Positions 212 to 53,222 of a DNA stretch of 64,000 nucleotides are shown here, in pieces. The stretch is taken from assembly GCA_041648975.1 (NCBI GenBank), contig JBAZNZ010000009.1, positions 1,033 through 65,032 of the forward strand, in the 5' to 3' direction. Within the stretch, counting starts at the first letter, position 1; each line of letters starts with the position of its first letter. The translations under genes and the position numbers were made by a program. The notes beneath the pieces were generated by a model. That model was not told the DNA's origin. It worked only from the letters and a program-made list of their open reading frames with translations, and ran no database searches. This DNA comes from Candidatus Omnitrophota bacterium. GTDB taxonomy: Bacteria > Omnitrophota > Gorgyraeia > 2-01-FULL-45-10.

Positions 212-294
212 AGTAACCAGAAACCAGTTACCAGAATGGTCAGACTGTCGATTTTTTCTTTTTCTGGTTACTTTCTTTCTGGTTACTGGTAACT
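212..294. repeat. word-built AT-rich inverted repeat (GGTTACTGG/CCAGTAACC words)
   Basis: AGTAACCAGAAACCAGTTACCAG ... CTGGTTACTTTCTTTCTGGTTACTGGTAACT; lies downstream of purB'. Confidence 0.6.
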
Positions 295-8592: not shown

Positions 8593-9042
8593 ATGCGTTG
8601 CCCGTACTGCGGGAGCAGGAGAGACTGCGTTATCGATTCGCGCACCGCGAAGGACGGCTTGAATGTCCGTCGCCGCAGGCATTGCCTTAAGTGCAAAAGG
8701 CGGTTCACGACGTATGAACACGTCGAGCATATCCCGCTCATGGTAATAAAGAAAGACGGCCGCCGCGAGCCTTTTTCCAGGGAAAAGCTGATGAACGGCA
8801 TCATCGTCGCCTGCGAAAAGAGGCCCGTAAGCATTAAACGCATAGAAAAGCTTGTGGATGAGATCGAGCGCGACCTGGAGAAGAACCACGACAGAGAAGC
8901 CGGATCTAAAGAGGTCGGCGAGCTTGTCATGAAGGCGCTGCGAACGCTGGATGAGATAGCCTATGTGAGGTTCGCCTCCGTGTACAGGCAGTTCAGGGAT
9001 GCGGGCCAGTTCGTCAAGGAGCTGAAGAAATTTTTGAGGTGA
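8593..9042 (+). CDS. nrdR: transcriptional repressor NrdR
   Basis: MRCPYCGSRRDCVIDSR zinc ribbon followed by an ATP-cone domain; 149 aa. Confidence 0.9.
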   Translation: MRCPYCGSRRDCVIDSRTAKDGLNVRRRRHCLKCKRRFTTYEHVEHIPLMVIKKDGRREPFSREKLMNGIIVACEKRPVSIKRIEKLVDEIERDLEKNHDREAGSKEVGELVMKALRTLDEIAYVRFASVYRQFRDAGQFVKELKKFLR

Positions 9043-9054: not shown

Positions 9055-9906
9055 ATGCGCGAAGCCCTTTATTACGAAAAGCTCGATGCGCGGCGCGTCC
9101 ACTGCCACCTGTGCCCCAATGAGTGTGCGATCCCGCCGGGTGGGAGAGGGGCATGCGGCGTCAGGATGAACAAGTCAGGCGCGCTGTATACCGAAGTATA
9201 CGGGAAGACGACGGGCGTCGCCCTCGACCCGATAGAAAAGAAACCGCTGTACCGCTACCATCCCGGCGAACATATACTATCGCTGGGCACAAAAGGCTGC
9301 AATCTCCACTGCGATTTCTGCCAGAACTGGCACATATCGCAGGAGGTCGACAGCCCCACGCAGAATATCACATCCGAAGAAGTGATCGCGAAGGCTAAGG
9401 CCCTCGGCTCGTTCGGCATAGCCTATACCTATAATGAGCCGTTCATATGGTATGAATTTGTCCTCGACACCGCGCGCCTGGCGAAGAAGGACGGATTAAA
9501 GAACGTGCTTGTGACGAACGGGTATGTCAATATGGGGCCTCTCGAGGGCATGCTTCCGGTCATAGACGCGATGAACATAGACCTGAAGTCGATCGACGAG
9601 AAGTTCTATTCTAAGATATGCAGGGGGAGCCTCAAGCCGGTCCTGGATGTAATAAAGGCCTCGGCTAAACGTTGCCATGTAGAACTTACCAACCTTCTGA
9701 TACCTACCCTTAACGATTCCGAAGCGGATGTCGCGAAGATGGTCGACTGGATATATACAAACCTGGGGAGCGATGTGCCCCTTCACCTGTCCCGTTATTT
9801 CCCGTGCTACAGGATGAACCTGCCGCCGACGTCTTTAACGTCACTGAGCAGGGCGGAATCGATAGCGAAGAAGAAATTGAAGTATGTGTATGTGGGGAAC
9901 GTCTGA
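9055..9906 (+). CDS. AmmeMemoRadiSam-system-type radical SAM enzyme
   Basis: CNLHCDFCQNW radical-SAM CX3CX2C motif plus an N-terminal Cys cluster; 283 aa. Confidence 0.75.
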   Translation: MREALYYEKLDARRVHCHLCPNECAIPPGGRGACGVRMNKSGALYTEVYGKTTGVALDPIEKKPLYRYHPGEHILSLGTKGCNLHCDFCQNWHISQEVDSPTQNITSEEVIAKAKALGSFGIAYTYNEPFIWYEFVLDTARLAKKDGLKNVLVTNGYVNMGPLEGMLPVIDAMNIDLKSIDEKFYSKICRGSLKPVLDVIKASAKRCHVELTNLLIPTLNDSEADVAKMVDWIYTNLGSDVPLHLSRYFPCYRMNLPPTSLTSLSRAESIAKKKLKYVYVGNV

Positions 9907-9912
9907 CGCTTT

Positions 9913-11274: not shown

Positions 11275-12159
11275 ATGAAAGAGAAGAGCTTAAAACTTAA
11301 ATTGGGCCTGCCCAAGGGTAGCCTCCAGGAGGCTACCGTAAGGATGTTCCGCAAGGCCGGCTTCTATGTCGGCATAAGCGAACGGTCTTATTTCCCGTCA
11401 ATAGACGACGACCGGATAGAGTGCATACTCTTCAGGGCGCAGGAGATGTCCCGCTATGTCGAGGATGGCATACTCGACGTAGGCATAACGGGCAACGACT
11501 GGATACTGGAGAACTCTTCCAATGTCGTGAGGGTCGCGGAACTGATATACGCGAAACAGAGCATGAGGCCGGTGAGATGGGTGCTTGCGGTCCCCCAGGA
11601 TTCCAAAATAAAAAGCGTAAAAGACCTTAAGGGCAAATCTATCGCCACAGAACTTGTCAATGTGACGAAATCCTATTTGAAGAAGAATAAAGTGAAGGCG
11701 AATGTCGAATTCAGCTGGGGCGCGACCGAAGTCAAGGCCATTGTCGGAGTGGACGCTATCGTAGAGGTCACGGAGACGGGGTCATCGCTTCGGGCGAACA
11801 AATTAAGGGAGATCGCTACGGTGTGCGAGTCGACGACTCAGCTCATCGTCAACAGGAAGAGCTGGATGATACCGTGGAAGAGGGACAAGATAGAGAACCT
11901 GGCGATGCTCCTGAAGGGCGCGATACTGGCCGAAGAGAAGGTGGGGCTTAAGATGAACGTCGCGAAGAAAGACCTGAAGGTCGTTCTGGGGCTTCTGCCG
12001 GCGATGAAGAAACCGACGATATCGAACCTTGTAGACTCCGACTGGGTCGATATAGATACGATAATAGACGAGAAGGTAGTGAAGGACCTGATACCGAAAT
12101 TGAAAAAAGCAGGCGCCGAGGGAATCATCGAGTACCCTTTAAACAAGGTGATTTATTAG
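11275..12159 (+). CDS. hisG: ATP phosphoribosyltransferase (long form)
   Basis: LGLPKGSL and GITGND motifs plus a C-terminal regulatory domain; 294 aa. Confidence 0.9.
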
Positions 12160-12169
12160 TCATAAATTC

Positions 12170-12295
12170 TAAGCACGAAATCCGAAATTCGAAACAAATT
12201 CAATCTTTCGAATTTTCAAAACTGCTGTTTTGGTCGTTTGAATTTTGGTTATTTGATGTTGTTTCGTATTTCGATATTCGTATTTCGGATTTATA
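12170..12295. repeat. long imperfect inverted repeat built from CGAAAT/ATTTCG words
   Basis: ACGAAATCCGAAATTCGAAACAA ... TTGTTTCGTATTTCGATATTCGTATTTCGGATT; lies between hisG and the bS22-like ORF. Confidence 0.55.
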
Positions 12296-12317
12296 GTTTA
12301 CTAGGAGGTGATATCCA

Positions 12318-12407
12318 ATGCCTTGCGGACGTAAGCGTAAAAGAGCGAAGATGGCGAAGCATAAAAGAAAAAAAAGGATGAGAAGAGACCGCCATAAAAA
12401 GAAATAA
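12318..12407 (+). CDS. bS22-like ribosomal small protein (29 aa, extremely basic)
   Basis: AGGAGGTG Shine-Dalgarno sequence 7 nt upstream of the ATG. The peptide MPCGRKRKRAKMAKHKRKKRMRRDRHKKK resembles the mycobacterial/Bacteroidetes bS22 sequence ([23 protein letters not shown]...) as recalled from memory. Absent from the ORF track because it is under 60 aa. Confidence 0.5.
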   Translation: MPCGRKRKRAKMAKHKRKKRMRRDRHKKK

Positions 12408-12472
12408 GTCGTAAGCTGTAAGTTGTAAGTTTTAAGTTAAAAGCTTACAACTTACGACTTACAGCTTATAAC
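12408..12472. repeat. word-built hairpin (GTAAG/CTTAC words)
   Basis: GTCGTAAGCTGTAAGTTGTAAGTTTTAAGTT | AAGCTTACAACTTACGACTTACAGCTTA; directly follows the bS22-like stop codon. Confidence 0.65.
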
Positions 12473-12498
12473 TAAACCTCTGTTTAAGAGTCACTATA

Positions 12499-14034
12499 GT
12501 GCGCGCGACAAAATATATATTTTCCCTGGCAGTTCTCATTACACTTCTAATATCCACGGTCGATTTAGATGCTGTAATAGACATTTCCGCCAAAAAAAAT
12601 CCGCTCTCGTTATGGGAAACGGTCGTCCAGAAGGTCCGCCCGACGAATGCGTTTTCCAGGTCGCTAGCCCATTTCACGATGGGCGTTATCAACGATAACG
12701 AGTCCAAGCCCGAAGACGCTATCCGGGAATACAAAGAGGCGATAGAGTCCGAGCCCGGCGTAAGCTACCTGCATACGAGGCTCGCCATAGATTATATACT
12801 TCTTAAGAAAGAAGACGACGCCGTCGAAGAATTGAAGACGGCCAAATCGCTTGACCCCTCCGACGTGAGGCCGAAGTTCCTCCTGGCGTTGACATATACG
12901 TCGCTGGGTATGCTTGAAGAGGCGCGCAGAGAGTACGAAGAGATAGCGCGGCTCGACCCGAACTCCATATGGGCGCTAAGTTCTTTGGCGGACATATTTG
13001 TATTACAGAAGAAGATGGCTGAGGCTGCCGCTGTATACGAGAAGCTTCTCGAGGATAAGAAAGACTCCGCCGTCCTGTATTTCAACCTTGCGGTCATCTA
13101 CTCGAGGATGGAGAGGACCGACGAGGCCATAGAGATGCTTAAAGAGGCGGTCTCGGTAGACGGCGAATACGTCGAGGCGTATATAGGGCTCGGCATATTA
13201 TATGAGATGAAAAAAGACCTCCCCGGCGCCATCCGTAATTTCGAAACGGCTCTTGAGAAAGATCCTCTGAATACGAAGCTATATCACCACATCGGCATCT
13301 TATACTATAAAGATAAGAAGGTAGACAGGGCGATAAAGAAATACGAGCTCTTGCTGAAGAATAATCCCAACGATCTCGACGCTTACATAGAGCTTTCGAA
13401 TATATATCTGGGCGAAAAGAGGCCGCAGGACGCGATAAAGGCGCTCGACGCCGCGTTGGAGAGGGGTTCGAAGGAAGCGAGCCTGTATATAGCCCTGGGA
13501 TTTACGTATACTGTCCTGGAGAGATACGATGAGGCGCTGAAGTTCTATAACACGGCGCTTGAGATAGATAGAGATGACCCGAAAGTCCATTTTTATCTCG
13601 GAGTCCTTTATGAAAAGAGAGGCGACAAAGAATTGGCCGCCGGAGAACTCAGGGAAGCGATAAGATTAGACCCGGATTTCGCGGACGCCTGTAATTACCT
13701 TGGGTACATGCTGGTAGAAAAGGGGGGAGCCTTGGACGAGGCCATCCTCCTTATAAAGAAGGCGCTGGAGACAGATCCCGATAATGCCGCTTATATAGAT
13801 TCTCTCGGATGGGCGTATTTTAAGAATGGCATGACGGATGAGGCGCTTACGGAATTGGAGAAGGCGTTAAAGCTGGAACCGGGCGATCCCGAAATAAGGG
13901 ACCATCTCGGTGAGGCGTACCTTAAGAAAGGTATGAAGGGTAGGGCAAGGGAAGAGTGGAAGAAGGCGCTCGAACTTAAACCCAGCAAGGATATGCAGGA
14001 TAAAATTAGAGAGAAGCTGAGAAAGGCAAGGTAG
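12499..14034 (+). CDS. secreted TPR-repeat protein
   Basis: N-terminal signal-like hydrophobic segment followed by about ten tetratricopeptide repeats. Confidence 0.7.
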   Translation: MRATKYIFSLAVLITLLISTVDLDAVIDISAKKNPLSLWETVVQKVRPTNAFSRSLAHFTMGVINDNESKPEDAIREYKEAIESEPGVSYLHTRLAIDYILLKKEDDAVEELKTAKSLDPSDVRPKFLLALTYTSLGMLEEARREYEEIARLDPNSIWALSSLADIFVLQKKMAEAAAVYEKLLEDKKDSAVLYFNLAVIYSRMERTDEAIEMLKEAVSVDGEYVEAYIGLGILYEMKKDLPGAIRNFETALEKDPLNTKLYHHIGILYYKDKKVDRAIKKYELLLKNNPNDLDAYIELSNIYLGEKRPQDAIKALDAALERGSKEASLYIALGFTYTVLERYDEALKFYNTALEIDRDDPKVHFYLGVLYEKRGDKELAAGELREAIRLDPDFADACNYLGYMLVEKGGALDEAILLIKKALETDPDNAAYIDSLGWAYFKNGMTDEALTELEKALKLEPGDPEIRDHLGEAYLKKGMKGRAREEWKKALELKPSKDMQDKIREKLRKAR

Positions 14035-14140
14035 GTTACGTAATGTTACGTAAAGTTAGTGAATGTTACGTAAGGTTACAAAAGTCTACTAACCTTACGT
14101 AACCTTAATTAACCTTCACTAGCCTTATGTAACCTTTTAA
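14035..14140. repeat. word-built hairpin (TTACGTAA/GGTTAC words)
   Basis: GTTACGTAATGTTACGTAAAGTTAGTGAATGTTACGTAAGGTTAC ... ACCTTACGTAACCTTAATTAACCTTCAC...; lies between the TPR gene and tkt-N. Confidence 0.65.
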
Positions 14141-14152
14141 TAGCGAGACCAC

Positions 14153-14986
14153 ATGAATAAACCCAACATATTAACTCTGAAAAAGAAAGCAGTAGATATA
14201 CGCAAAGACATCCTGAAGATGTTGATGATTGCCGGTTCGGGTCATACTGGCGGCAGCCTTTCCATCGTCGAGATATTGATCTCGTTATACTATTATAAAT
14301 TAAAACATAATCCAAAAGATCCCGGCTGGCAAGGGCGGGACAGATTTCTTTTGTCAAAAGGGCACGGATGCCCGGCGCACTACGCCGTCCTGGCCGATCT
14401 AGGATATTTCCCTAAAGATATGCTCTGGACGCTTCGCAAATTCGGCAGTAAACTGCAGGGCCACCCCCAGATAGGCCTGCCGGGAGTGGAAGTGTCGAGT
14501 GGTTCTCTGGGGCAGGGGCTGTCGATAGCGAACGGTATGGCGCTCGCCTCCCGCCTCGACAAGACAGGCATGAGGGTGTATTGCCTGATGGGCGACGGCG
14601 AGACGAACGAGGGCCAGGTATGGGAAGCGGCCATGACGTCAGCCCACTACAAGCTCGATAACGTATGCGCTATAATAGATTTCAACAAGCTGCAGATAGA
14701 CGGTTTTTGCTGCGACGTGATGGACATGGGGCCGTATATCCATAAATGGAAAGACTTCGGCTGGCATGCCATCGAAACAGACGGCCATGATATTGCCAAG
14801 CTGATGGACGCGCTCGATGAGGCCTCCGGCGTAAAAGGCAAACCGACTATAATCATAGCCCATACCATAAAAGGTAAAGGCGTTTCATTTGTAGAGAACA
14901 AGGCGGAATGGCACGGCGTAGCCCCGTCGAGGGATCAGTATGAACGGGCCATTGAAGAGTTGGATAAGCAGTTAAAAGGGCTCTAG
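14153..14986 (+). CDS. transketolase, N-terminal (thiamine-diphosphate-binding) subunit
   Basis: 277-aa ORF with GSGHTGGSLSIVEIL and GDGETNEG ThDP motifs; split-transketolase architecture. Confidence 0.9.
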   Translation: MNKPNILTLKKKAVDIRKDILKMLMIAGSGHTGGSLSIVEILISLYYYKLKHNPKDPGWQGRDRFLLSKGHGCPAHYAVLADLGYFPKDMLWTLRKFGSKLQGHPQIGLPGVEVSSGSLGQGLSIANGMALASRLDKTGMRVYCLMGDGETNEGQVWEAAMTSAHYKLDNVCAIIDFNKLQIDGFCCDVMDMGPYIHKWKDFGWHAIETDGHDIAKLMDALDEASGVKGKPTIIIAHTIKGKGVSFVENKAEWHGVAPSRDQYERAIEELDKQLKGL

Positions 14987-14990
14987 TTTC

Positions 14991-15056
14991 TTGAGTTATT
15001 TGCGTTTGTTGCGTTCAACGCAATAAACGCAATGAACTCAATGAACGCAATAAACC
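14991..15056. repeat. word-built hairpin (AACGCAA/TTGCGTT words)
   Basis: TTGAGTTATTTGCGTTTGTTGCGTT | AACGCAATAAACGCAATGAACTCAA; lies downstream of tkt-N. Confidence 0.65.
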
Positions 15057-15081
15057 ATAGTCAATTTACAAGGAGTTAATT

Positions 15082-16734
15082 ATGTTATCCAGAAAAATGA
15101 AGATGTATATCAAGATGTATTGGGTGAGGATCGTCATCATACTTGCCGTGGTCCTGGTGGGATTCCTGGCGGTGTGGGGGCTCATGTCGCTCGAGTCTTT
15201 CTACAGGAAGATCACGCTCGCGACGATGCCGATCAACCTTATAATGGTAGCGCTGAACGCCACCATATTCGTGTTCATGTACATGATGTTCATGCAGGGC
15301 GGGCTTGCCAAGGTGTCGAAGTCGACGATAAAGGGCGAGCGCGTCAATGTGAAATGGGACGACGTCGTCGGCATGGAAGATGTAAAGGTGGAGGCCAGGG
15401 AAGTCGTCCAGCTCATATCGGACAGGGCGCGCCTGAAGAAGATAGGCGGGAAGATACTGCGCGGCATCCTTATGATAGGGCCTCCGGGGTGCGGAAAGAC
15501 CTATATGGCCAAGGCGATAGCGACCGAGACGGGCCTGCCGTTCCTGGCGATGTCGGGCAGCGAATTCGTCGAGATATTTGTCGGGGTCGGAGCCTCCAGG
15601 GTGAGAAGGCTGTTCAAAAAAGCCAGGGAGCTCGCGTACGGTTACGGCGGCTGCATTGTTTTTATAGACGAACTCGATGCCATCGCGAGAAAAAGAGTAT
15701 TCTCGGTATTCGGCGGGACGGAAGAGACGAACTCCACGCAGAACCAGCTTCTCGCCGAGATGGACGGCCTGCAGGAGATAAAGGATAAAGACGGAAATCC
15801 GTCGTCTGAGCAGAACGTCATCATCATCGGCGCTACCAACGCCCCTGAAGACAACCTCGACCGGGCGCTCTTGAGGCCCGGCAGGTTCGACAGAAAACTT
15901 TATATAGATAAGCCGGGGCTGGAGGATAGGGAGAAGCTCTTCAAGTTTTATCTCGATAAGATACAGCATGATCCTTCGATAGACGTAGCGCGGCTTGCTC
16001 GAAAAGCCGTATATAAATCTCCGGCAGATATTGAAAATATAATCAAGGAAGCGGCGCTCATCGCCACAAGAGATAATCGCGACGTCATAAAGCTGGAAGA
16101 CATCTCGGAGGCGATCGAGAGGGTCGACATGGGCATGAAACATAAGCGGACCATGCCCCCGCGGGAGCGCGAGATGGTAGCCTGGCACGAGACCGGGCAC
16201 CTCGTCACTACGTATCTCCTGCATCCGACTAAGGATGTCTTCAAAGCTTCGATCATAGGGCGGAAATCGTCGCTTGGCGTCGTCCACTCGAATTTAAGGG
16301 AAGAATGGCATGTGGACACCAGAGAAGTGCTTATCGCCGATATCAAGATATGCCTGGCGAGTTATGTGATAGAGAAGATGAAGTTCAATACGACCTCGAA
16401 CGGTGTGGACATGGATTTCAAACAGGCCATGACTATAGCCCATAATATGGTCTGGAGATGGGGCATGAACGACGCCGGCCTCGTCGGCGATTACACGCTC
16501 ATCCCGGAAACACAATTGTCCGAAAATACGAAAGACGCCCTGAATAAAGAGACCGACAAGATTATGCAGGCATGCGTAAAGAGCGTCGAAGAGCTGCTGA
16601 AGAACGAATGGACCATCGCGGAGAGATTTGCCAAAGAACTCCTCGCGAAAGATGAGCTGGATTACGACGATATAGAGGCGATCTTCAAGGAATACGGCAA
16701 GACGCACACGAACAGCGAATGGCAGAAGAAATAA
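15082..16734 (+). CDS. FtsH-family ATP-dependent zinc metalloprotease paralog lacking a periplasmic domain
   Basis: Two N-terminal transmembrane helices, Walker A GPPGCGKT, Walker B IVFIDELDA, SRH region, HETGH zinc site; 550 aa. Confidence 0.8.
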   Translation: MLSRKMKMYIKMYWVRIVIILAVVLVGFLAVWGLMSLESFYRKITLATMPINLIMVALNATIFVFMYMMFMQGGLAKVSKSTIKGERVNVKWDDVVGMEDVKVEAREVVQLISDRARLKKIGGKILRGILMIGPPGCGKTYMAKAIATETGLPFLAMSGSEFVEIFVGVGASRVRRLFKKARELAYGYGGCIVFIDELDAIARKRVFSVFGGTEETNSTQNQLLAEMDGLQEIKDKDGNPSSEQNVIIIGATNAPEDNLDRALLRPGRFDRKLYIDKPGLEDREKLFKFYLDKIQHDPSIDVARLARKAVYKSPADIENIIKEAALIATRDNRDVIKLEDISEAIERVDMGMKHKRTMPPREREMVAWHETGHLVTTYLLHPTKDVFKASIIGRKSSLGVVHSNLREEWHVDTREVLIADIKICLASYVIEKMKFNTTSNGVDMDFKQAMTIAHNMVWRWGMNDAGLVGDYTLIPETQLSENTKDALNKETDKIMQACVKSVEELLKNEWTIAERFAKELLAKDELDYDDIEAIFKEYGKTHTNSEWQKK

Positions 16735-16752
16735 GAGGCGGGCATCTTGGGA

Positions 16753-17757
16753 ATGAAAACAAAGCGGACCTGTTCTTTAATTTTACTGGTTACTGGTTAC
16801 TGGTTACTGGTTACTTTTTTAAACGGTTGCACCCCGACATACCCTAAAGAGAAATTTAAGGAATGCATACTTGAGGTATGTAAAAAGGAATATAAGGTAG
16901 ACGTCAAGGTCGGCGCGGCCGGCAAGACGGTGGCGATATACCTGCCGCTTGAGAATCTGCTCGATTTCACATTCGCCATAACAAAAGAGGCGAGCGAGCA
17001 TATAAACGACGTGCTGCTTAGCGTATCGCGCGTCTCGTTGTCGACGGACGCGGACTATGACTTTTATGTTATCATCGCCCATGATATCCGTATCCCGGAG
17101 ATACAGATAGTTATTATCAAGTCCGTGGACGATGTGAAGAGGTTCATGTTGAACGATATATCCAGGGGAGAATACGGCAAGAGGATGCTCATAGACCTGC
17201 GCATGAATCCCCAGGCGCAGAAAGAACGCGCCGTAAAAGAGATATTCCAGAAGATGAACCTCGATAAGAAGTGGCAGGAAGACGTGATGAACGACTTCTT
17301 CAGGGCCGAGCCGACGGCGCTTAGCGATATCGGGTACTGGAATAACAGGTTTTATGTTAAAGATATCGCGATGACCGAATTCCTGGCGGAACAGGTAGCC
17401 TCCAGGATCAAAATAGATTTCAGGGAGGACAAGAAATTATCGGACGCGTTTTCGGTCAAGTCGTCCAAGGGGCGGTATCTGGACAAAAACGGCAAACGTT
17501 ATTTCCAGTTCGACCTGTCGATAGGGCCCGGTTCGCCCGAAGCGTTGGTGGATGAAAATTACCCGGGCAGGATACTCGAGGAAGCCCTTAAGATCGCCGT
17601 AAACGTGCTCCGCGGTTACTTCTTCGAAGATTATGATTACATAGAGATAGTCAATCAGGCCGATAAGAAGATGATAAGGGTTTCCCGGGAAGACGCGGAG
17701 AGATTCAGGACGAAAAAGATAAAATTCAAGGATATACTTATAGAAGGTATCGCGTAG
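16753..17757 (+). CDS. hypothetical lipoprotein
   Basis: MKTKRTCSLILLVTGYWLLVTFLNGC signal peptide with lipobox; the hydrophobic h-region is encoded by the (TTACTGG)4 tandem repeat. Confidence 0.55.
   Translation: MKTKRTCSLILLVTGYWLLVTFLNGCTPTYPKEKFKECILEVCKKEYKVDVKVGAAGKTVAIYLPLENLLDFTFAITKEASEHINDVLLSVSRVSLSTDADYDFYVIIAHDIRIPEIQIVIIKSVDDVKRFMLNDISRGEYGKRMLIDLRMNPQAQKERAVKEIFQKMNLDKKWQEDVMNDFFRAEPTALSDIGYWNNRFYVKDIAMTEFLAEQVASRIKIDFREDKKLSDAFSVKSSKGRYLDKNGKRYFQFDLSIGPGSPEALVDENYPGRILEEALKIAVNVLRGYFFEDYDYIEIVNQADKKMIRVSREDAERFRTKKIKFKDILIEGIA
16783..16814 (+). repeat. tandem heptanucleotide repeat (TTACTGG) x 4.5 inside the lipoprotein signal-peptide coding region
   Basis: TTACTGGTTACTGGTTACTGGTTACTGGTTAC read directly from the sequence. 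Confidence 0.9.
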
Positions 17758-17777
17758 GGCATACAGGGGAGTCTAAT

Positions 17778-18731
17778 GTGAGCGCAGGCAACTTTAAGAT
17801 GGTCCCGACGAGAGACGGTTTCGGCGAGGGCCTGATAGAACTGGGGAAACGGAATAAGGATGTCGTCGTCCTGTCGGCCGACCTGACCGATTCGACAAGG
17901 GCGGCCTGGTTCAAAAAACAGTTCCCGGAGAGGTTCTTCGGTATGGGTGTTGCCGAACAGGACATGATCGGAACCGCGGCCGGATTAGCGCTAATGGGAA
18001 AGATCCCGTTCGCGTGCACATTCGGGGTTTTCGCGTCGGGCAGGGCGTGGGACCAGATAAGGATATCGGCCGCTTATATGAACATTAACGTGAAGATAGC
18101 CGGCACCCACGGCGGCATCTCCGTCGGACCGGACGGCGCCACTCACCAGGCGCTTGAGGAGATAGCGCTTATGCGGATCCTGCCTAATATGACCGTGATC
18201 GTCCCGTGCGACGCGCTTGAAGCTAAGAAGGCGACGATAGAAGCCGCCGGGACCAGGGGGCCTGTATATATAAGGCTGGGCAGAAGCGGGATGCCCGTCA
18301 TTACGCGTCCCGACGATGTATTCAAGATAGGCAAGTCGGTCATGATGAGGGATGGCAAAGACCTGACCATATTTGCCTGCGGCCAGATGGTATACGAGTC
18401 GATGCTGGCGTGCGATATGCTGGAAAAAGACGGCATAGGCGCGCGGCTTATAAATCTGCACACCCCGAAACCGATAGACAAGGACGCCGTCATTAAGGCA
18501 GCACGCGATACGGGGGCCATAGTCACGGCGGAAGAGCATTTGATCGCCGGCGGTATGGGCAGCGCCATAGCGGAGATCGTGGTCCAGGAATGCCCTGTAC
18601 CGATGAAGATGGTCGGCGTTAAGGATAAATTCGGCACATCCGGCGAGCCGGACGAGCTGTTCGAATACTTCGGCCTTACGGCGAAACATATTGTATCATC
18701 CGCGAGAGAGGTCCTCGCAAAAAAGCGGTAG
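17778..18731 (+). CDS. transketolase, C-terminal (pyrimidine-binding/TKC) subunit
   Basis: 317-aa ORF; GTG start preceded by a GGGGA ribosome-binding site; FGMGVAEQDMIGTAAGLAL motif. Confidence 0.9.
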   Translation: MSAGNFKMVPTRDGFGEGLIELGKRNKDVVVLSADLTDSTRAAWFKKQFPERFFGMGVAEQDMIGTAAGLALMGKIPFACTFGVFASGRAWDQIRISAAYMNINVKIAGTHGGISVGPDGATHQALEEIALMRILPNMTVIVPCDALEAKKATIEAAGTRGPVYIRLGRSGMPVITRPDDVFKIGKSVMMRDGKDLTIFACGQMVYESMLACDMLEKDGIGARLINLHTPKPIDKDAVIKAARDTGAIVTAEEHLIAGGMGSAIAEIVVQECPVPMKMVGVKDKFGTSGEPDELFEYFGLTAKHIVSSAREVLAKKR

Positions 18732-18741
18732 ACAGATCGAT

Positions 18742-19680
18742 ATGACATCCATAGAATTAACTGCGCCTGCTAAAGTAAACCTCGTCCTAAAGATCCTCGG
18801 CAAGCGAAAAGACTCCTATCACAATATCTATACTCTATTTGAGAAGATATCCCTTTGCGACCGTATACGGATAACAAAGATTCGGGAAGGCATTATCGTC
18901 TCTTCGGATAGATTTATTACGCGTAGCCCTAAAGATAACCTGGTGTATAAAGCCGCCAAGCTGTTTCTGGGGCGCCATAAGCTGAAATACGGCGTAAAGA
19001 TAGACATTAAGAAGAAGATACCGATAGCGGGCGGCCTTGGCGGAGGCAGTTCGGACGCCGCAAGTGTCCTTATGGGAATGGACAGGCTGTTCGGGTTGAA
19101 GATAGGCAGAGCCGGATTGTTAAGTCTTGCCGCCAGGCTGGGTTCCGACGTCCCGTTCTTTATCCTGGACGTACCGTTTGCCGTCGGCAGGGGCCGGGGA
19201 GAGCGTCTGGAGAAGGCTGATGTAAGAAAACGCCTCTGGCACTTGATAATCTATCCCGGTTTCAAGGTATCCACAAAGGATGTTTACGAGGCTTTTGACG
19301 CCCATCAAGAGGCCTTGGTCCCTCGCCGGGGCTCGGGATCAAGGCCTGAGCATTTGCCGAAGGCCTTGACAACACGCCATTGCGGTGATAGAATAATCCG
19401 TCAATCGGCGGGTTCTATGGACTTTGGCGAGATCGAATCTATGCTTTACAACGACCTTGAAGAGACGGTTATAGCTAAAAAAGAGACGATCGGTAAGGTA
19501 ATAGAACGCTTGGCTTCTTCTCTAAACAAGAAAGCGATTGTATCGGGAAGCGGGCCAAGCGTATTTTGTCTCTATAGGGACGGAAAGGAGGCGCTCGCCG
19601 CTAAAAGAAGGCTTTTGGGTAGCCTGCCGGCGCCTGAACGGGCAAGCTGGCAGGTATTTGTCGCGAAAACAGAGAAATAA
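18742..19680 (+). CDS. ispE: 4-diphosphocytidyl-2-C-methyl-D-erythritol kinase
   Basis: LTAPAKVNLVLKILGKR N-terminus and GHMP-kinase motif PIAGGLGGGSSDAA. The ATG at 18742 is preferred over the longer upstream ORF-track extension. Confidence 0.85.
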   Translation: MTSIELTAPAKVNLVLKILGKRKDSYHNIYTLFEKISLCDRIRITKIREGIIVSSDRFITRSPKDNLVYKAAKLFLGRHKLKYGVKIDIKKKIPIAGGLGGGSSDAASVLMGMDRLFGLKIGRAGLLSLAARLGSDVPFFILDVPFAVGRGRGERLEKADVRKRLWHLIIYPGFKVSTKDVYEAFDAHQEALVPRRGSGSRPEHLPKALTTRHCGDRIIRQSAGSMDFGEIESMLYNDLEETVIAKKETIGKVIERLASSLNKKAIVSGSGPSVFCLYRDGKEALAAKRRLLGSLPAPERASWQVFVAKTEK

Positions 19681-19775
19681 GGTAAGTAATGTTAATTTGA
19701 GGAATTTGCGCCTCGGCAATCAAAATATTGCCTCGGCATAAATTTTTCTTCGAAAAATTTAGGAGCTTATACACC

Positions 19776-20270
19776 ATGGAGATCACGGAGATAAAGATTT
19801 TTATGAAAGAAGGGCAGGACAAGAAGCTAAAGGCTTACGCGACGCTTACGCTCGATAACGCGTTCGTCGTCAGGAACGTGAAGGTCATAGAAGGCACAAA
19901 AGGCCTCTTCGTCGCTATGCCTTCCAGGAAGATAAAAGAGCCTTGCCCTAAGTGCGGTTTCAGGAATGCGGTGAGGAGCAAATACTGCAACCAGTGCGGC
20001 GGTAGCCTCCCGCAGAGCCACGAGCCCAGGCCGGTTCAGCCGGGAGAAGATATGGCAAGACAGTCGGAGCACAAGGATATCGCGCATCCGATAACCGCGG
20101 AATGCAGGGACTACATACAGAAGAAAGTCCTGGATGCTTACGAGAATGAAAAAACGAAAGGTCCTTCGACTCGACCGAGCGCTCCGTCAACCGTTCCACA
20201 GAGCGCCCCGCAGCACAGGGGCCCTCACGCTATCGGAGACGTCGAGGAGGATAACGATATAGAGTTATAA
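19776..20270 (+). CDS. spoVG: SpoVG-family protein with an inserted C4 zinc ribbon and extended C-terminus
   Basis: MEITEIKIF...GLFVAMPSRK ... DIAHPITAE match the SpoVG core. Roughly 42 extra residues carrying CPKC...CNQC lie between those blocks. An AGGAG ribosome-binding site sits 10 nt upstream of the ATG at 19776. Confidence 0.75.
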   Translation: MEITEIKIFMKEGQDKKLKAYATLTLDNAFVVRNVKVIEGTKGLFVAMPSRKIKEPCPKCGFRNAVRSKYCNQCGGSLPQSHEPRPVQPGEDMARQSEHKDIAHPITAECRDYIQKKVLDAYENEKTKGPSTRPSAPSTVPQSAPQHRGPHAIGDVEEDNDIEL

Positions 20271-20321
20271 GACAGTTCAGCAAGTCAGTTTGCAACATCC
20301 CGAGGCCTATGGCCGAGGGAT

Positions 20322-20546
20322 AAAATTTTTCGCTCCACCACAGGGCAGCTTAACGGCAGGCGCCCTTTCGGCTAATTTTGCCGTCAAGAGTATTTGAGTT
20401 TGATAGTAGTTATATATTTTTTTATCTTGCCGTTATGGATACAACGGTTTAAAGAGTTTAGATTATGGTGCAGCCTCGGCAAAATATGACGCCTCAAGGG
20501 CTACCTGCCGTTATCTGCCCTTGCAGTCAGAGTGAAGAAATTTTAC
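20322..20546 (+). mobile_element. MITE-like element copy A (~225 bp, ~65-bp terminal inverted repeats)
   Basis: Left end AAAATTTTTCGCTCCACCACAGGGCAGCTTAACGGCAGGCGCCCTTTCGGCTAATTTTGCC; right end is its inverted complement ...GGCAAAATATGACGCCTCAAGGGCTACCTGCCGTTATCTGCCCTTGCAG..GTGAAGAAATTTT. Confidence 0.6.
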
Positions 20547-20778
20547 TGGAGAGGCGGGGCGGCTGGTAAGACGTTATCAAAATTTACGGCTCCCGCCTGC
20601 CAGCGAGAGACTGCTTCAGGCGGGCAGGCAACCCACGTGGCCGGTTGCCGTCGTCGCCATAATAGAGCGAAAAAATTTTGTCTGGGAGGACAAGGAAAAT
20701 TTCGCTCCAGCAACGACCCAAAAGTTCTGCCATCTGACGGGCCGAAAAATTATATCGGAGGAACAAGTTGGATGGGAT

Positions 20779-20852
20779 TGCCCGGTGGTGTAATGGTAGC
20801 ACACCAGCCTTTGGAGCTGTGGGTCCTGGTTCGAATCCAGGCTGGGCAACCA
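20779..20852 (+). tRNA. tRNA-Gln (anticodon UUG)
   Basis: Cloverleaf folded by eye. Acceptor stem TGCCCGG/CTGGGCA with U1-A72 as in bacterial tRNA-Gln; anticodon loop CTTTGGA; T-arm GGTTCGAATCC; 3' CCA encoded. Confidence 0.85.
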
Positions 20853-20974: not shown

Positions 20975-22243
20975 ATGAAAAACATAACAGCGATTATACT
21001 TGCGGCGGGAAGAGGGACGAGGATGAAGTCCGACGTACCTAAGGTCCTTCATAAGATACTGGGGCGTCCTATCATCTCTTATGTGCTTGACGCTGTCGGG
21101 GACGCCGGTATTTCCAAGACGGTGACCGTCGCCGGATTCGGTATCGACAGACTTAAAGAGTTGTTAGGGGAAGAGACTAAAGTCGTTATCCAGAGGAAGC
21201 TCCTCGGCAGCGGCGACGCGGTCAAGACGGCAAAGAGGGTCCTTGGGAAACATCCCGGCGATATCCTCGTTATCTGCGGAGATACGCCGCTTATCAAGCC
21301 CCGGACGATAAAGGATATCATCGAAAGGCATAAGGCCGCCGGGGCAAGCGCCACCCTTCTGACGGTCAGGTTAAAAGATCCCGCAGGCTACGGCAGGATA
21401 ATACGGTCGAACGCCGGCAAGATAGTAAAGATCATGGAAGAGGAAGACGCCCATTCTTACGGCGAAGTTGTTAACGAAATTAACGTCGGCACTTATTGTT
21501 TTAAGGCAAAAGACCTTTTTGAAGCGCTATCCGGTATAAGGCCCAATAACAGGAAGAAAGAATTTTTCCTGACCGACGTAATAGAAATTCTGGGTAAAAA
21601 AGGTTTGCCGGTAGAAGCGGTTTCGGCCAAAGACGCGAGCGAGATGATAGGCATAAATACGAGAAAAGACCTGGCTGTTGCTACGGCTACAGTCAAGAGC
21701 AGGATATTGAACGAGCTTATGGACGCAGGCGTTACGATAGAAGACCCGCTATCGACCGTAATATATCCGGGCGCGAAGATCGGCCGCGATACGGTCATTT
21801 ACGCAAATACATATATAGAATCGGATGTGGAGATAGGCGCCTCCTGCCTTATAGGCCCTTTTACGCGGCTAAGAAAAGGCGTGCGTATAGGCAACCGTGT
21901 TGAGGTGGGGAATTTTGTGGAGCTTGTCAGGACAGAAGTGGGCGACGATACAAAGGTAAAACATCATACTTATCTTGGAGATACTAAGTTAGGGAAGTCA
22001 GCCAATATCGGCGCCGGCGTCATTACGGCAAACTACGACGGGAAGAATAAGAATAGGACCATTATAGAAGACGGAGCTTTCATAGGCGTCGGGGCCAGGC
22101 TGATAGCGCCCCTGTCGATCGGCAAAGGCGCAGTCGTCGGAGCAGGGGCAGTCGTGCCTAAGAACCACGATGTCCCGAAAGGCGCGACGGTGTTGGGCGT
22201 GCCGGCGAGGATATTAAAAAAAAGGTTACATAACGTTACGTAA
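20975..22243 (+). CDS. glmU: bifunctional UDP-N-acetylglucosamine pyrophosphorylase / glucosamine-1-phosphate N-acetyltransferase
   Basis: AIILAAGRGTRM nucleotidyltransferase motif followed by a C-terminal left-handed beta-helix hexapeptide-repeat domain. The ATG at 20975 is preferred over the TTG at 20945. Confidence 0.85.
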   Translation: MKNITAIILAAGRGTRMKSDVPKVLHKILGRPIISYVLDAVGDAGISKTVTVAGFGIDRLKELLGEETKVVIQRKLLGSGDAVKTAKRVLGKHPGDILVICGDTPLIKPRTIKDIIERHKAAGASATLLTVRLKDPAGYGRIIRSNAGKIVKIMEEEDAHSYGEVVNEINVGTYCFKAKDLFEALSGIRPNNRKKEFFLTDVIEILGKKGLPVEAVSAKDASEMIGINTRKDLAVATATVKSRILNELMDAGVTIEDPLSTVIYPGAKIGRDTVIYANTYIESDVEIGASCLIGPFTRLRKGVRIGNRVEVGNFVELVRTEVGDDTKVKHHTYLGDTKLGKSANIGAGVITANYDGKNKNRTIIEDGAFIGVGARLIAPLSIGKGAVVGAGAVVPKNHDVPKGATVLGVPARILKKRLHNVT

Positions 22244-22325
22244 GGTTAGCGAAGGTTACGTAACGTTAATAAAACTCAAGCAACCTTACATAACCTTAAT
22301 TAACTTTCACTACCATTACGTAACA
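22214..22325. repeat. word-built hairpin (TTACGTAA words) overlapping the glmU 3' end
   Basis: AAGGTTACATAACGTTACGTAAGGTTAGCGAAGGTTACGTAACGTTAAT ... AACCTTACATAACCTTAATTAAC..CATTACGTAACAT; the glmU stop codon TAA is part of a TTACGTAA word. Confidence 0.65.
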
Positions 22326-24998: not shown

Positions 24999-25000
24999 TT

Positions 25001-25490: not shown

Positions 25491-25570
25491 AGTTTAGTTA
25501 ATTGCGTTTATTGGGTTTGTTGGGTTAACGCAATGAACGCAAAAAACGCAACGAACACAATAAACTAACA
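25491..25570. repeat. word-built hairpin (AACGCAA words)
   Basis: AGTTTAGTTAATTGCGTTTATTGGGTTTGTTGGGTTAACGCAATGAACGCAAAAAACGCAACGAACACAATAAACTAACA; shares the word AACGCAATGAACGCAA with the hairpin at 14991. Confidence 0.65.
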
Positions 25571-26352: not shown

Positions 26353-26356
26353 ACAG

Positions 26357-26498
26357 CTTTGTGTAAAGTTTTATGTGTAATGTGTAATGTTGGTGTAATG
26401 TAGCTATGTGTAATGGAAAATTCGCTCTGTCTAATCTTTTTACATTAAACAATAACCCATTAAACTCGCTTTACACATTACACATTTAACATTACACA
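26357..26498. repeat. word-built hairpin (GTGTAATG/CATTACAC words), ~140 bp
   Basis: GTGTAAAGTTTTATGTGTAATGTGTAATGTTGGTGTAATGTAGCTATGTGTAATGG ... CTTTACACATTACACATTTAACATTACACAAA; lies between rplI and dnaB. Confidence 0.65.
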
Positions 26499-26501
26499 AA
26501 A

Positions 26502-27893
26502 TTGTTAGAGAGTGCTATGGCTCAAGAGTCGATAGAAAAGGTCCCGCCGCAAAACGTAGAAGCCGAGATAGCGGTCATCGGATCCATGCTCTTAGATCAC
26601 GACGCTATTTCGCAGGCCGTAGAGATATTGAATTCGGATTATTTCTATAAAGAATCCCACAGGAAATTATACTCCGCGATGTTAAGGCTCTTCGACGAGA
26701 ACAAGGCCGTCGACATCATAACGGTCATGGAAGAGCTCAAGAAGACAAACTCACTTGATGACGCAGGCGGCCCGGCCTACATATCGAGCCTCGCGTCGGC
26801 CGTCCCTACCACAGCAAATTTTGTCCATTACGCTAAGATAGTCAAGGAAAAGGCCCTTCTCAGAAACCTCATTAATACAGCCACCCAGATAGTCACCGAA
26901 TGTTATGATACCACCATGGACGCCGATACGCTTGTGGACAAGGCGGAACAGCGCATATTCGACGTTACATCCAAGAAAGTGGAATCCAGGTTCGTCTCCC
27001 TTAGAGAAGTCATAAAAGATTCCATAGAGACCATAGACAACCTTTACCAGAGAAAAGAGAATATTACCGGCATAGCTACCGGCTACAGGGAACTCGATAT
27101 GAGGACCGCCGGGCTGCAGCCCTCTGACCTGGTGGTTATAGCGGGCCGTCCTTCGATGGGTAAAAGCGCGCTGGCTTCATGCATAGTGGAGCATGCGGGC
27201 GTTATCGAAAAAGAGCCGGTCGCGTTCTTCAGCCTTGAAATGTCCAAAGAACAGCTCGTCCAGAGGATGCTATGTTCGCACGCGAGAGTCGACGCGCATA
27301 AGGTCAGGACGGGTTTTCTGTCCCAGGCGGATTGGCCGAGGCTCGTCAGCGCGGCCGGAAAGTTATCGGAAGCGCCTATCTACATAGATGATTCACCGGG
27401 CATAACGGTCCTGGAGCTGAGGGCTAAGGCACGGCGGCTAAAGGCCCAGTTCGATATTAAATTGATAGTGCTCGATTATCTCCAGCTTATGCAGGGGCCC
27501 GCTAGATCCGAATCGAGGCAGCAGGAGATATCCGAGATATCCAGGTCGCTGAAGGCTATAGCCAAAGAGTTGAAGGTGCCGCTCATCGCTATAAGCCAGT
27601 TGTCGCGCGCTGTGGAGCAAAGGTCCGACCACAGGCCCCAGCTTTCCGACTTGAGGGAGTCGGGCGCTATTGAACAGGATGCCGACCTGGTGCTGCTTCT
27701 CTTGAGAGAGGAGTATTACAACCCGACCGATGAGAACAAGGGTATTGCGGAGGTCATAATAGCTAAGCAGAGGAACGGCCCAGTAGGGAGCCTGAACCTC
27801 GCGTTTCTCGGAGAGTATATGCGTTTTGAGAACATTGCCCAGAAGTCGGAAGATTTTGTCGACGTGGATATGGAAAAGATGGAGAGAGTGTGA
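26502..27893 (+). CDS. dnaB: replicative DNA helicase
   Basis: 463-aa ORF with Walker A GRPSMGKSA and RecA-like motifs; no intein seen. Confidence 0.9.
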   Translation: MLESAMAQESIEKVPPQNVEAEIAVIGSMLLDHDAISQAVEILNSDYFYKESHRKLYSAMLRLFDENKAVDIITVMEELKKTNSLDDAGGPAYISSLASAVPTTANFVHYAKIVKEKALLRNLINTATQIVTECYDTTMDADTLVDKAEQRIFDVTSKKVESRFVSLREVIKDSIETIDNLYQRKENITGIATGYRELDMRTAGLQPSDLVVIAGRPSMGKSALASCIVEHAGVIEKEPVAFFSLEMSKEQLVQRMLCSHARVDAHKVRTGFLSQADWPRLVSAAGKLSEAPIYIDDSPGITVLELRAKARRLKAQFDIKLIVLDYLQLMQGPARSESRQQEISEISRSLKAIAKELKVPLIAISQLSRAVEQRSDHRPQLSDLRESGAIEQDADLVLLLLREEYYNPTDENKGIAEVIIAKQRNGPVGSLNLAFLGEYMRFENIAQKSEDFVDVDMEKMERV

Positions 27894-30208: not shown

Positions 30209-30215
30209 GGGCGTA

Positions 30216-30247
30216 GTTATAAGTCGTAAGTTTTAAGTTGTAAGATA
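30216..30247. repeat. short word-built hairpin (GTAAG words)
   Basis: TTATAAGTCGTAAGTTTTAAGTTGTAAGATAA; lies downstream of bamA. Confidence 0.45.
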
Positions 30248-42161: not shown

Positions 42162-42255
42162 GTAGTGATTAAGCAATTAAGTTATTAAGCGATTAAGTTT
42201 TACTTAATCACTTAATCGCTGAGAGGATATAAAGCATAGAATCGCTTAATTACCA
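42162..42255. repeat. word-built hairpin (ATTAAG/CTTAAT, AATCGC words)
   Basis: GTGATTAAGCAATTAAGTTATTAAGCGATTAAGT TTT ACTTAATCACTTAATCGCT ... ATCGCTTAATTACC; lies downstream of rpsB. Confidence 0.65.
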
Positions 42256-42865: not shown

Positions 42866-42934
42866 CAGTTGTAAGCTATAAGTTGTAAGTCATAAATTTT
42901 TGTCTTACAACTTAAAACTTACGACTTACAACTA
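42866..42934. repeat. word-built hairpin (GTAAG/CTTAC words)
   Basis: AGTTGTAAGCTATAAGTTGTAAGTCATAAA | TTTTTGTCTTACAACTTAAAACTTACGACTTACAACT; runs right up to the pyrH ATG. Confidence 0.65.
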
Positions 42935-43671: not shown

Positions 43672-44229
43672 ATGACGCTTAAAGAGATTGTTCACGATAC
43701 GGAAATGAAGATGAAGAAGACCGTTGAGGCCACGCAGAGAGAATTCTCTGTAATAAGGACAGGCAGGGCGTCAACAGCTCTTGTAGAAGGCATAAGGGTG
43801 GATTATTACGGCACGTTGACGCCTATAAGACAGCTGGCCGCGATATCGACACCCGACGCCAAGAATATAGTCATACAGGCCTGGGACAAGAACGCGCTGG
43901 GGGAGATCGAAAAGGCCATACTTAAATCGGAAATAGGCATCGTTCCAACAAATGACGGCAAGGTCTTAAGGCTCACGGTCCCGTCGCTTACACAGGAGCG
44001 TAAGCAGGAATTGGATAAGATATTGAAGAAGATAGCCGAGGACGGCAGGGTATCGCTCCGCACCGGAAGGCACAGCGCGGTAGAGCACGTGAGGAAAGCG
44101 GAAAAAGACAAGTTGATCACCGAAGACGAGAAGTTTAAGGGGCAGGAAGACATCCAGAAGCTCACCGATAAGTACATTAAAGATATAGATAACCTCCTCG
44201 CCGGTAAAGAGAAGGAAATCCAAGGATAG
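43672..44229 (+). CDS. frr: ribosome recycling factor
   Basis: 185-aa ORF with the RRF fold signature. Confidence 0.9.
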   Translation: MTLKEIVHDTEMKMKKTVEATQREFSVIRTGRASTALVEGIRVDYYGTLTPIRQLAAISTPDAKNIVIQAWDKNALGEIEKAILKSEIGIVPTNDGKVLRLTVPSLTQERKQELDKILKKIAEDGRVSLRTGRHSAVEHVRKAEKDKLITEDEKFKGQEDIQKLTDKYIKDIDNLLAGKEKEIQG

Positions 44230-44320
44230 CGATTAAGCAATTAAGTGATTAAGTAGCTTATCCTTAAACTTAATAACTTAATCGCCAAAGTCAATTTAAG
44301 TATATAATCGCTTAATTACT
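44230..44320. repeat. word-built hairpin (ATTAAG/AATCGC words)
   Basis: GCGATTAAGCAATTAAGTGATTAAGTAG ... ACTTAATAACTTAATCGCC ... ATAATCGCTTAATTACT; shares the 15-mer ATTAAGCAATTAAGT with the repeat at 42162. Confidence 0.65.
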
Positions 44321-53135: not shown

Positions 53136-53136
53136 C

Positions 53137-53176: not shown

Positions 53177-53222
53177 AAGGTTACGTAACCTTAATTAACC
53201 TTCCCTAACATTACGTAACATA
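53177..53222. repeat. word-built palindrome (GGTTACGTAACC) in the lexA 5' UTR
   Basis: AAGGTTACGTAACCTTAATTAACCTTCCCTAACATTACGTAACAT; contains the perfect 20-bp palindrome TTAAGGTTACGTAACCTTAA. Confidence 0.6.

Follow-up and report, generated by a model that had tools for sequence, protein, structure and literature searches.

Long inverted arms built of short tandem repeats with nested periodicities are known from the Foldback (FB) elements of Drosophila, and the cyanobacterial STRR heptamers are long simple-sequence repeats. The latter are also cited in the study of Xanthomonas (Rehm et al. 2015, PMC4692102), where intergenic tandem heptamers of the word GGGAATC occur 70–75 times per genome as opposite-strand pairs able to form stem-loops. 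Direct arrays of the heptamer TAACTGA adjoin start codons in Beggiatoaceae, cyanobacteria and Bacteroidetes (PMC4679880). Repetitive extragenic palindromic (REP) sequences, whose superfamilies and genomic placement have been described (PMC3733652), consist of a 20–40-bp unit, one end of which bears a GTAG or CGTC tag that stays unpaired. Here we analyse a stretch of 64,000 nt, called the window below, from a Candidatus Omnitrophota bacterium (GenBank assembly GCA_041648975.1, contig JBAZNZ010000009.1, positions 1,033 to 65,032 of the forward strand), in which long AT-rich hairpins assembled from reiterated short words stand beside stop codons. The focal element lies at 14033–14135.

The phylum Omnitrophota is uncultured, its cells are very small and its genomes compact, and to our knowledge nothing has been known of operon punctuation or of tolerated mobile DNA in them. 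Within this genome the elements are dispersed repeat families of fixed sequence. A family has spread to unrelated intergenic sites as a defined sequence, and the ATTAAG family, at least, varies in presence and absence between near-identical strains. We read the elements as several families of small non-coding, non-autonomous, species-specific fold-back repeats akin to REPs and to MITEs, the miniature inverted-repeat transposable elements, with a probability of roughly 0.6. They are a word-built variant of bacterial repeat that has hardly been described so far; the literature yielded nothing on Omnitrophota repeats or on multi-family word hairpins. The first-pass annotation of the window had proposed a previously undescribed class, which holds for the phylum as far as the literature shows, but not in general, inverted tandem heptamer pairs having been published for Xanthomonas (PMC4692102).

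Dispersed families and their anatomy

The sites of the TTACGTAA family at 14033, 22222 and 53177 align position by position, with their variant words in one shared order (...GTTAGTGAA...; ...CCTTAATTAACCTTCAC...). Scanning metagenomes with a 22-mer taken from an arm of this family retrieved a 61.8-kb Joint Genome Institute (JGI) contig, L088, which comes from elsewhere in this genome or from one very close to it; a second match, L087, had the lone 22-mer without a hairpin and is probably due to chance. L088 holds two further complete copies, one in the dapA–dapB spacer and the other between an aminotransferase gene and folK. By eye the two share about 97% identity, the non-repetitive loop TAAAGATTGAG included, and they are 87% identical to the 14033 element over 103–105 nt. 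Three families (CGAAAT, TTACGTAA and GTAAG) are present within 6.5 kb of L088. The four ATTAAG copies follow one modular plan, in which an outer stem GTGATTAAGC...GCTTAATTAC is combined with an inner word hairpin and a variable 20-nt linker; a Shine–Dalgarno sequence stands at the end of three of them. At 53177 only a half element is left, a 3′ arm joined through the palindromic core TTACGTAA, and it may have arisen by deletion between such cores. The first-pass annotation had held that conservation concerns structure and word composition and does not extend to a fixed sequence. The copies are instead homologues with the same word order and loop, 87–97% identical at unrelated loci. As for the exact 15–16-mers it had listed as shared, the 15-mer ATTAAGCAATTAAGT does occur twice, whereas the 16-mer AACGCAATGAACGCAA is exact at 25527 only and the copies at 15017–15050 have one mismatch each.

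The same arms could in principle have arisen in situ and without mobility, by replication-slippage expansion of an ordinary small hairpin or palindromic word and template-switch copying to the other arm (quasipalindrome correction), their likeness then being convergent. Tandem arrays of period 7–10 fit such a history, as do the palindromic cores of several words (TTACGTAA, TTAA, TTCGAA), the permuted word order between copies of the GTAAG and ATTAAG families and a perfect array of 4.7 TTACTGG units at 16783, which shows active slippage. Heptamer simple repeats are called expansion-prone where PMC4692102 and PMC4679880 draw on a 2007 survey. Independent slippage, however, cannot yield the variant-word order, the loop TAAAGATTGAG and the flanking modules that unrelated loci share, and whole elements of 140–186 nt stand at sites that are otherwise 2–11 nt long. 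Slippage probably remodels the elements after insertion and leaves their origin at each site unexplained; we regard an origin in situ as very unlikely.

In the focal element the arms, 14033–14079 and 14090–14136, are 78–79% complementary over 43–46 nt. Both are period-10 tandem arrays according to Tandem Repeats Finder (TRF), of 4.5 units of GTTACGTAAT and 4.7 units of TAACCTTACG, and the RNA folds at −39.2 kcal/mol (z = −6.9), a stability that none of 200 shuffles reached. Long hairpins of RNA dG −21 to −46 kcal/mol and z −3.3 to −9.3, with at most one shuffle in 200 as good, were found at 11 of the 13 sites, the stems spanning 58–153 nt. Their arms are tandem arrays of a 7–10-nt word (TRF periods 7, 8, 9 and 10; 3–5 copies; 74–100% matches), and at least seven unrelated words are in use in this one genome. 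In this they agree with STRR-like long simple-sequence repeats, which are defined as mostly intergenic, head-to-tail iterations, at least three in number, of a 5–11-nt unit. The first-pass annotation had rested on a real observation: all 13 sites exist, are non-random and related, and are AT-rich as it had said (63–73% AT, against 50% for the window). Its 13 palindromes come down to the 11 long hairpins, 30215–30244 and 53177–53221 being single-arm arrays.

A score for the recurrence of a word and its reverse complement marked 11 regions in the window, of which one, near 32000, is an inverted repeat in coding sequence and belongs to none of the 13 sites; 100 dinucleotide shuffles gave 0.14 regions on average and never more than 2. 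This crude 6-mer score was kept for the window shuffle test only; GC-rich low-complexity coding DNA swamps it in high-GC outgroups. An ungapped inverted-repeat finder caught only 6 of the 11 hairpins, because the words shift register, and was replaced by TRF combined with a search for reverse-complement partners. In Rfam, two tRNAs alone reached the gathering score in the whole window, with nothing in 35550–36400 and no known RNA family.

The window has a G+C content of about 50%, and nearly all of its genes are on the plus strand. They are housekeeping genes, among them purC, hisG, a TPR protein gene, transketolase, ftsH, glmU, prs, rpsF, ssb, rpsR, rplI, dnaB, bamA, ompH, rpsB, tsf, pyrH, frr and lexA. 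Between and within them lie the following features (dG in kcal/mol for the RNA).

206–208: stop codon, read from the frame translation, of the gene that runs off the window start before the next element; stop-to-stem distance 3 nt
212..287, plus strand: word hairpin upstream of purC, AACCAGA / TCTGGTT; dG −27.2, z −3.3; TRF period 7
9901..9911, no strand: empty site between convergent radical-SAM (+) and SurA-like (−) genes; the sister strain has an ATTAAG-family element of about 140 nt
12166..12290, plus strand: CGAAAT / ATTTCG-family word hairpin following hisG, a sub-hairpin at its centre; dG −33.9, z −4.3
12407..12473, plus strand: word hairpin after a 29-aa basic small open reading frame (ORF), GTAAGNN / NNCTTAC; dG −36.8, z −9.3; arms 87% complementary
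14033..14135, plus strand: focal element downstream of the TPR gene, GGTTACGTAA / TTACGTAACC family; periods 10 and 20
14988..15055, plus strand: TTGCGTT / AACGCAA-family hairpin after the transketolase N-terminal gene, period 9 (TRF); dG −31.8, z −7.5
16783..16815, plus strand: perfect TTACTGG array, 4.7 units, no inverted partner; TRF 100% matches
22222..22324, plus strand: TTACGTAA-family hairpin downstream of glmU; dG −24.9, z −5.3; aligns with 14033 and 53177
24999..25000, no strand: empty site, the 2-nt rpsF–ssb spacer; the sister strain has a 186-nt ATTAAG-family insert
25492..25565, plus strand: AACGCAA-family hairpin between ssb and rpsR; dG −26.2, z −5.4
26353..26505, plus strand: largest word hairpin, in the rplI–dnaB spacer, TGTGTAA / TTACACA arms and a centre of about 60 nt; dG −45.9, z −6.5
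30215..30244, plus strand: half element in the bamA–ompH spacer, GTAAG 5′-arm array only, no hairpin; TRF period 7, 4.3 units; dG −2.1, z −0.03
42165..42253, plus strand: ATTAAG-family element in the rpsB–tsf spacer, outer stem GTGATTAAGC / GCTTAATTAC around the inner word hairpin
42867..42933, plus strand: GTAAG-family hairpin filling the tsf–pyrH spacer; dG −25.3, z −6.0
44229..44315, plus strand: ATTAAG-family element between frr and tRNA-Lys (44340–44415); dG −20.9, z −4.1
53177..53221, plus strand: half element in the lexA leader, 3′ arm of the TTACGTAA family; dG −8.5, z −2.3

The TAG stop of the TPR gene (14032–14034) overlaps the first paired bases of the focal element. Homologues of the hairpin downstream of hisG occur in L088 (reverse complement, 451–547) and in another Omnitrophota species, L004. 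In the tsf–pyrH spacer the minimum-free-energy stem ends 11 nt, and the 3′ word array 4 nt, before the pyrH ATG, which has no Shine–Dalgarno sequence. The word of the 16783–16815 array, TTACTGG, is also found in the 3′ arm of the 212–287 element; the array itself sits in the hydrophobic core of a lipoprotein signal peptide (translation MKTKRTCSLILLVTGYWLLVTFLNGC) and has the look of a recent expansion by slippage within coding DNA.

Two neighbouring features are recorded in their own right. The 29-aa ORF at 12318–12407 (MPCGRKRKRAKMAKHKRKKRMRRDRHKKK) is extremely basic, has a strong Shine–Dalgarno sequence and is flanked by two word hairpins; it may resemble the small ribosomal protein bS22. 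The half element before lexA comes after a canonical terminator (53095–53136) and a promoter-like region (53136–53170) whose TTGCAT...TATAAT overlaps GAACGATTGTTC. By reading, GAACGATTGTTC is a predicted LexA box of the GAAC-N4-GTTC type, and such a box upstream of lexA would imply autoregulation.

The genome also has a second, unrelated dispersed repeat of about 230–300 nt (window 20321–20548, 35631–35905 and 40587–40882; L088 10304–10601). It is a long fold-back without an Rfam match; its arms, CCACAGGGCAGCTTAACGGCAGGCGCCCTTTCGGCTAATTTTGCCGTCAAGAGTAT and its partner, each of about 65 nt, are almost invariant in the four copies, and its centre is variable. More short dispersed intergenic repeats lie at 1238–1305, 20571–20680 and 36090–36140 (inverted) and at 36290–36360 and 41110–41170; GACGTTATCAAAATTTACGGCTC...CCACATGGCCG and GAATATTTTCAGTGCTCACATAAC...GTAAAAATTTCAT are examples, and many hold a CGAAAAATTTT-like motif. 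The longer spacers of this genome are largely derived from repeats.

Strain turnover, placement and the RNA strand

An ENA assembly contains the region at 99.98% identity, and a Logan assembly matches the window DNA at 99.95%. The NCBI metagenome-assembled genome (MAG) GCA_028715235.1 is a sister strain, 99.4–99.7% identical in alignable blocks and 99.5–99.7% in the flanks of the inserts described below. Since the elements recur in several independent assemblies, they are not assembly artefacts. The sister-strain comparison spans about 27 kb, and all three structural differences in it concern the ATTAAG family. Between the rpsF stop and the ssb start GCA_028715235.1 has a 186-nt ATTAAG insert where the window has TT, and between convergent genes it has an insert of about 140 nt (RNA dG −55.7 kcal/mol) where the window has 9–11 nt. 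No clean target-site duplication was seen at either filled/empty junction (two sites). The third difference is the ATTAAG copy in the rpsB–tsf spacer, whose word order is re-arranged. This copy is one of 11 comparable elements; the other ten differ by 0–1 substitutions and show no change in unit number. In their whole-length fold-back, the outer stem of the ATTAAG family, small non-coding size and two filled-versus-empty sites the elements resemble MITEs.

Substitutions between strains are strongly clustered at 14914–14938, 27913–27944, 29413–29627 and 49244–49393 (window versus the loci L091, L085 and L092), for example 34 within 150 nt at 49244–49393. This indicates recombination tracts from more divergent lineages, not clock-like divergence.

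Stop-to-stem distances for the 11 hairpins are 3, 6, −1, −2, 1, −9, 11, 0, 17, 3 and −1 nt (median 1). The range of 0–10 nt given by the first-pass annotation thus suits nine of them, which lie within it or overlap the stop, but not the two at 11 and 17 nt. It had rightly placed a stop codon inside a word, namely the glmU TAA (22241–22243) within a TTACGTAA word, and co-directional flanks are true of every element in the window; one sister-strain copy sits between convergent genes. The stems finish 11–36 nt ahead of the next start codon, which leaves room for a ribosome-binding site. There are 13 elements in the 64-kb window and four in 6.5 kb of L088, all intergenic and after stop codons, and word elements make up about half of the window spacers longer than 60 nt. 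The tetranucleotide GTAG is found ahead of the stem at 14033, 26353, 30215 and 42165 and in the L085 insert, and is missing at 12407, 22222, 25492, 42867 and 44229 (ATAG) and in the L088 copies; in several cases its TAG is merely the upstream stop codon.

On direct reading none of the elements is followed by five or more U, as the first-pass annotation had seen. Its proposal of structural terminators is nevertheless weak, canonical GC-rich hairpins with a U-run being present in the same window at 47402–47439 and 53095–53136. A terminator scan of 12000–31000 called no word element. Having no U-tract, the transcribed hairpins are unlikely to terminate transcription, and an identification as intrinsic terminators was rejected: there is no run of five or more T after any stem, and the stems are long and AT-rich. 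Integron attC sites, imperfect palindromes with RYYYAAC / GTTRRRY core sites that follow the stop codons of promoterless cassettes arrayed next to intI, were rejected as well, for there is no integrase and no GTTRRRY core and the flanks compared (rpsB–tsf–pyrH–frr, rpsF–ssb–rpsR–rplI and dapA–dapB) are syntenic housekeeping genes; attC sites share the post-stop position only.

Placement of this kind also bears on the idea that the hairpins are selected RNA punctuation of operons, serving as U-less terminators or attenuators, 3′ stabilisers or RNase III sites that need no more than a long stem right behind a stop codon, with a sequence free to drift. The stems lie −9 to +17 nt from stops, likewise in other phyla, the orientation is uniform in all copies, and stems of 25–50 bp are long enough for RNase III. 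In many species the rpsB–tsf, tsf–pyrH and post-frr spacers are filled by different words, and TAGTTNN is common to the post-frr hairpins of the Omnitrophota species L004, L017 and L020. Among the four TTACGTAA copies, however, 0 of 36 pairs showed compensatory changes and several pairs were broken. Sense and antisense stability did not differ consistently in the window (sense better in 4–5 elements, antisense in 4, the rest equal), and 21 elements in other genomes likewise showed neither sense/antisense asymmetry nor a G·U bias, so that RNA-level selection finds no support there. Constancy finds none either. Strains that are 99.6% identical differ in whether an element is present, and in other species the orthologous spacers have other words or lack them; by reading, spacers at these sites are just 8–20 nt long and empty in about half of the related species. 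Canonical terminators exist in the window, yet the elements lack a U-tract, and stop-hugging is also produced by selection against disrupting the downstream ribosome-binding site. We consider selected punctuation unlikely.

With respect to the genes around them, 18 of 18 copies from five families lead with the same arm (13 free comparisons, p ~1e-4). Because nearly all genes run with positive GC skew, this orientation cannot separate a transcription bias from a replication bias.

Occurrence in other genomes, movement and the weight of the evidence

An exact-protein look-up with the transketolase found no match beyond the same genome; by EF-Ts (63–84% identity) the closest named relatives are mostly Candidatus Omnitrophota MAGs. 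We compared the rpsB–tsf, tsf–pyrH and frr spacers in 22 other Omnitrophota species. Some of these orthologous spacers hold other word hairpins (TAGCGT/ACGCTA, AGCTATA/CAGCTGA, GTATTGC/GCAATAC and TAGTTCA/TGAACTA), some hold single-arm arrays (GGAGTTA, CAGTC and TAGACC), and others, in about half of the related species by reading, are empty at 8–20 nt. A pattern search for the window's own words found none at the loci of other species; the sole exception, a CGAAAT-type hairpin in L004, escaped the pattern and was seen by eye. The more distant L022 and L023, labelled 'uncultured Planctomycetia', have a GC-rich REP-like hairpin, GTCATTGCGAGGAGGCC...GAAGCAATC, in the tsf–pyrH spacer, which is occupied by word hairpins in the other species.

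The same anatomy, an array of 7–10-mers, a loop and a complementary array, was found in MAGs labelled delta proteobacterium, Thermodesulfobacteriota, Desulfobacteraceae, Terriglobales, Candidatus Angelobacter and Pseudomonadota, and most of these examples start at a stop codon. Its recurrence in several phyla suggests a general, barely described process. A bolder proposal, which we hold to be possible but doubtful, is that word-built fold-backs form a widespread class of hairpin DNA, mobile or self-propagating, that spans phyla and has largely escaped notice. Its growth, by slippage and arm-to-arm copying, and its transposition would then rely on an undescribed mechanism, and its members would punctuate operons, for instance as RNase III sites or exonuclease barriers. 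Two sets of hairpins from these genomes may be mentioned separately. CACGAAG/CTTCGTG and CACGGAG/CTCCGTG hairpins occur at 8755–8880 and 9755–9830 of L070 and at 9835–9972 of L054. These near-identical words come from MAGs of different phyla, Pseudomonadota and Candidatus Angelobacter (which we take to belong to the Acidobacteriota), and one may ask whether word families have converged or have spread horizontally. A CAGATTT/AAATCTG hairpin occurs in two Thermodesulfobacteriota MAGs and one labelled delta proteobacterium (L027 9000–9125, L043 9275–9368 and L059 9380–9480); the L027 and L043 copies both fill one spacer between co-directional genes, some 3 kb downstream of tsf, a site that seems to have been kept occupied across species.

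Single-arm arrays in several related species, together with the half elements persisting at 30215 and 53177, are what one would look for if the words were recognised by a protein that binds DNA or RNA sequence-specifically and the hairpin were incidental. Leaders and spacers near start codons are occupied, and there is a precedent in the function hypothesised for the Beggiatoaceae TAACTGA repeats that lie upstream of start codons (PMC4679880). Such sites would hardly be expected to comprise at least seven unrelated words per genome, in periods of 7, 8, 9 and 10, or to differ between species. The words also pair with their complements far above chance, and no candidate binding protein was identified. 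A binding-array explanation is scarcely credible to us.

For fold-back repeats of the REP/MITE kind the following history may be proposed. Movement would probably take place as a single-stranded hairpin through an HUH/Y1-type transposase encoded elsewhere, such as a REP-associated tyrosine transposase or an IS200/IS605 TnpA-like enzyme. Transposases of this type act in a hairpin-dependent, orientation-specific manner and insert without duplication, and the proposal fits both the lack of an obvious target-site duplication at the two filled/empty sites and the uniform orientation. Copies would survive only in the harmless slot of compact operons, after the stop codon and before the next ribosome-binding site, which would explain why the stems hug stop codons. 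Words rich in TAA and TAG could make a copy that clips a gene end tolerable, as at glmU. After insertion, slippage and unequal exchange would reshuffle and remove words, and deletion between palindromic word cores would leave half elements. The most likely by-product, as with REPs, would be a barrier to 3′-to-5′ exonucleases and/or an RNase III site separating cistrons; we infer an RNA role of this sort (mRNA 3′ protection, RNase III processing) by analogy with REPs.

Several observations weigh against fold-back repeats of this kind. Precomputed Pfam hits show no transposase or autonomous partner in the window or the flanking loci, only housekeeping genes, and the REP-typical GTAG tag accompanies only about one third of the copies. 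Both insert junctions carry extra substitutions (synonymous) beside the insert. The insert polymorphisms may therefore have come by homologous recombination from a more divergent strain, and deletion instead of insertion is possible at the two sites. A function exerted by the RNA strand would likewise predict a uniform orientation. In different species several orthologous spacers have been occupied repeatedly, and some words persist across species: TAGTTNN downstream of frr, kept within subclades (L004, L017 and L020), and TAGCGT between tsf and pyrH; both hint at retention by selection. Moreover, about 77 kb of this genome was covered (64 kb plus about 13 kb), so genome-wide copy numbers are an extrapolation. 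Overall, the weight of the evidence favours REP- or MITE-like fold-back repeats over conserved RNA signals.

Relation to known systems

In the window the elements are the main determinant of intergenic length and of the mRNA structure between essential genes, for example in rpsB–tsf–pyrH–frr and ssb–rpsR–rplI–dnaB. They are tractable to study, as very small repeats in which change still goes on among strains 99.6% identical, and they join two topics that have been studied separately, expansion-prone heptamer repeats and REP- or MITE-type hairpins. In practice they are useful as strain markers and may cause breaks in MAG assemblies.

Among described systems, MITEs such as Correia/NEMIS, ERIC and RUP (PMC2229807, PMC3184786) are likewise non-coding, 50–200 nt long and palindromic from end to end, dispersed between genes, co-transcribed with their neighbours and polymorphic among strains. 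They differ in having terminal inverted repeats that match a parent insertion sequence and target-site duplications, neither of which was found here (the ~77 kb of this genome contain no insertion sequence), and their arms are not tandem word arrays. With Foldback the likeness, seen in the periods 10 and 20 of the TTACGTAA family, goes no further than architecture, FB elements being eukaryotic, measuring kilobases and having no sequence relation to those described here. STRR and TAACTGA repeats are also intergenic tandem heptamers beside start or stop codons, sometimes within ORFs, patchy in distribution and of unknown function. Those, however, are overwhelmingly direct arrays, whereas here the inverted pair is the rule and the long hairpin behaves as a unit.

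REPs and REPINs (PMC3733652, PMC2817692) resemble the Omnitrophota elements in being extragenic imperfect palindromes just past coding regions, between unidirectional or convergent genes, with several families per genome, variation among strains and no target-site duplication expected; they too are transcribed as RNA hairpins that are not canonical terminators. REPs are nevertheless 20–40 bp, GC-rich and tagged, while the elements here are 60–150 nt, 63–73% AT and made of tandem words, with GTAG in some copies, and REPs are mobilised by REP-associated tyrosine transposases, none of which was seen in the ~77 kb. The GGGAATC arrays of Xanthomonas share the intergenic inverted heptamer pairs, and there the length varies between species and the type (single or inverted pair) is kept. 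Xanthomonas has one G-rich word per genome, read as quadruplex-forming; in the present genome there are at least seven AT-rich words of periods 7–10, and whole-element copies and presence/absence between strains are shown.

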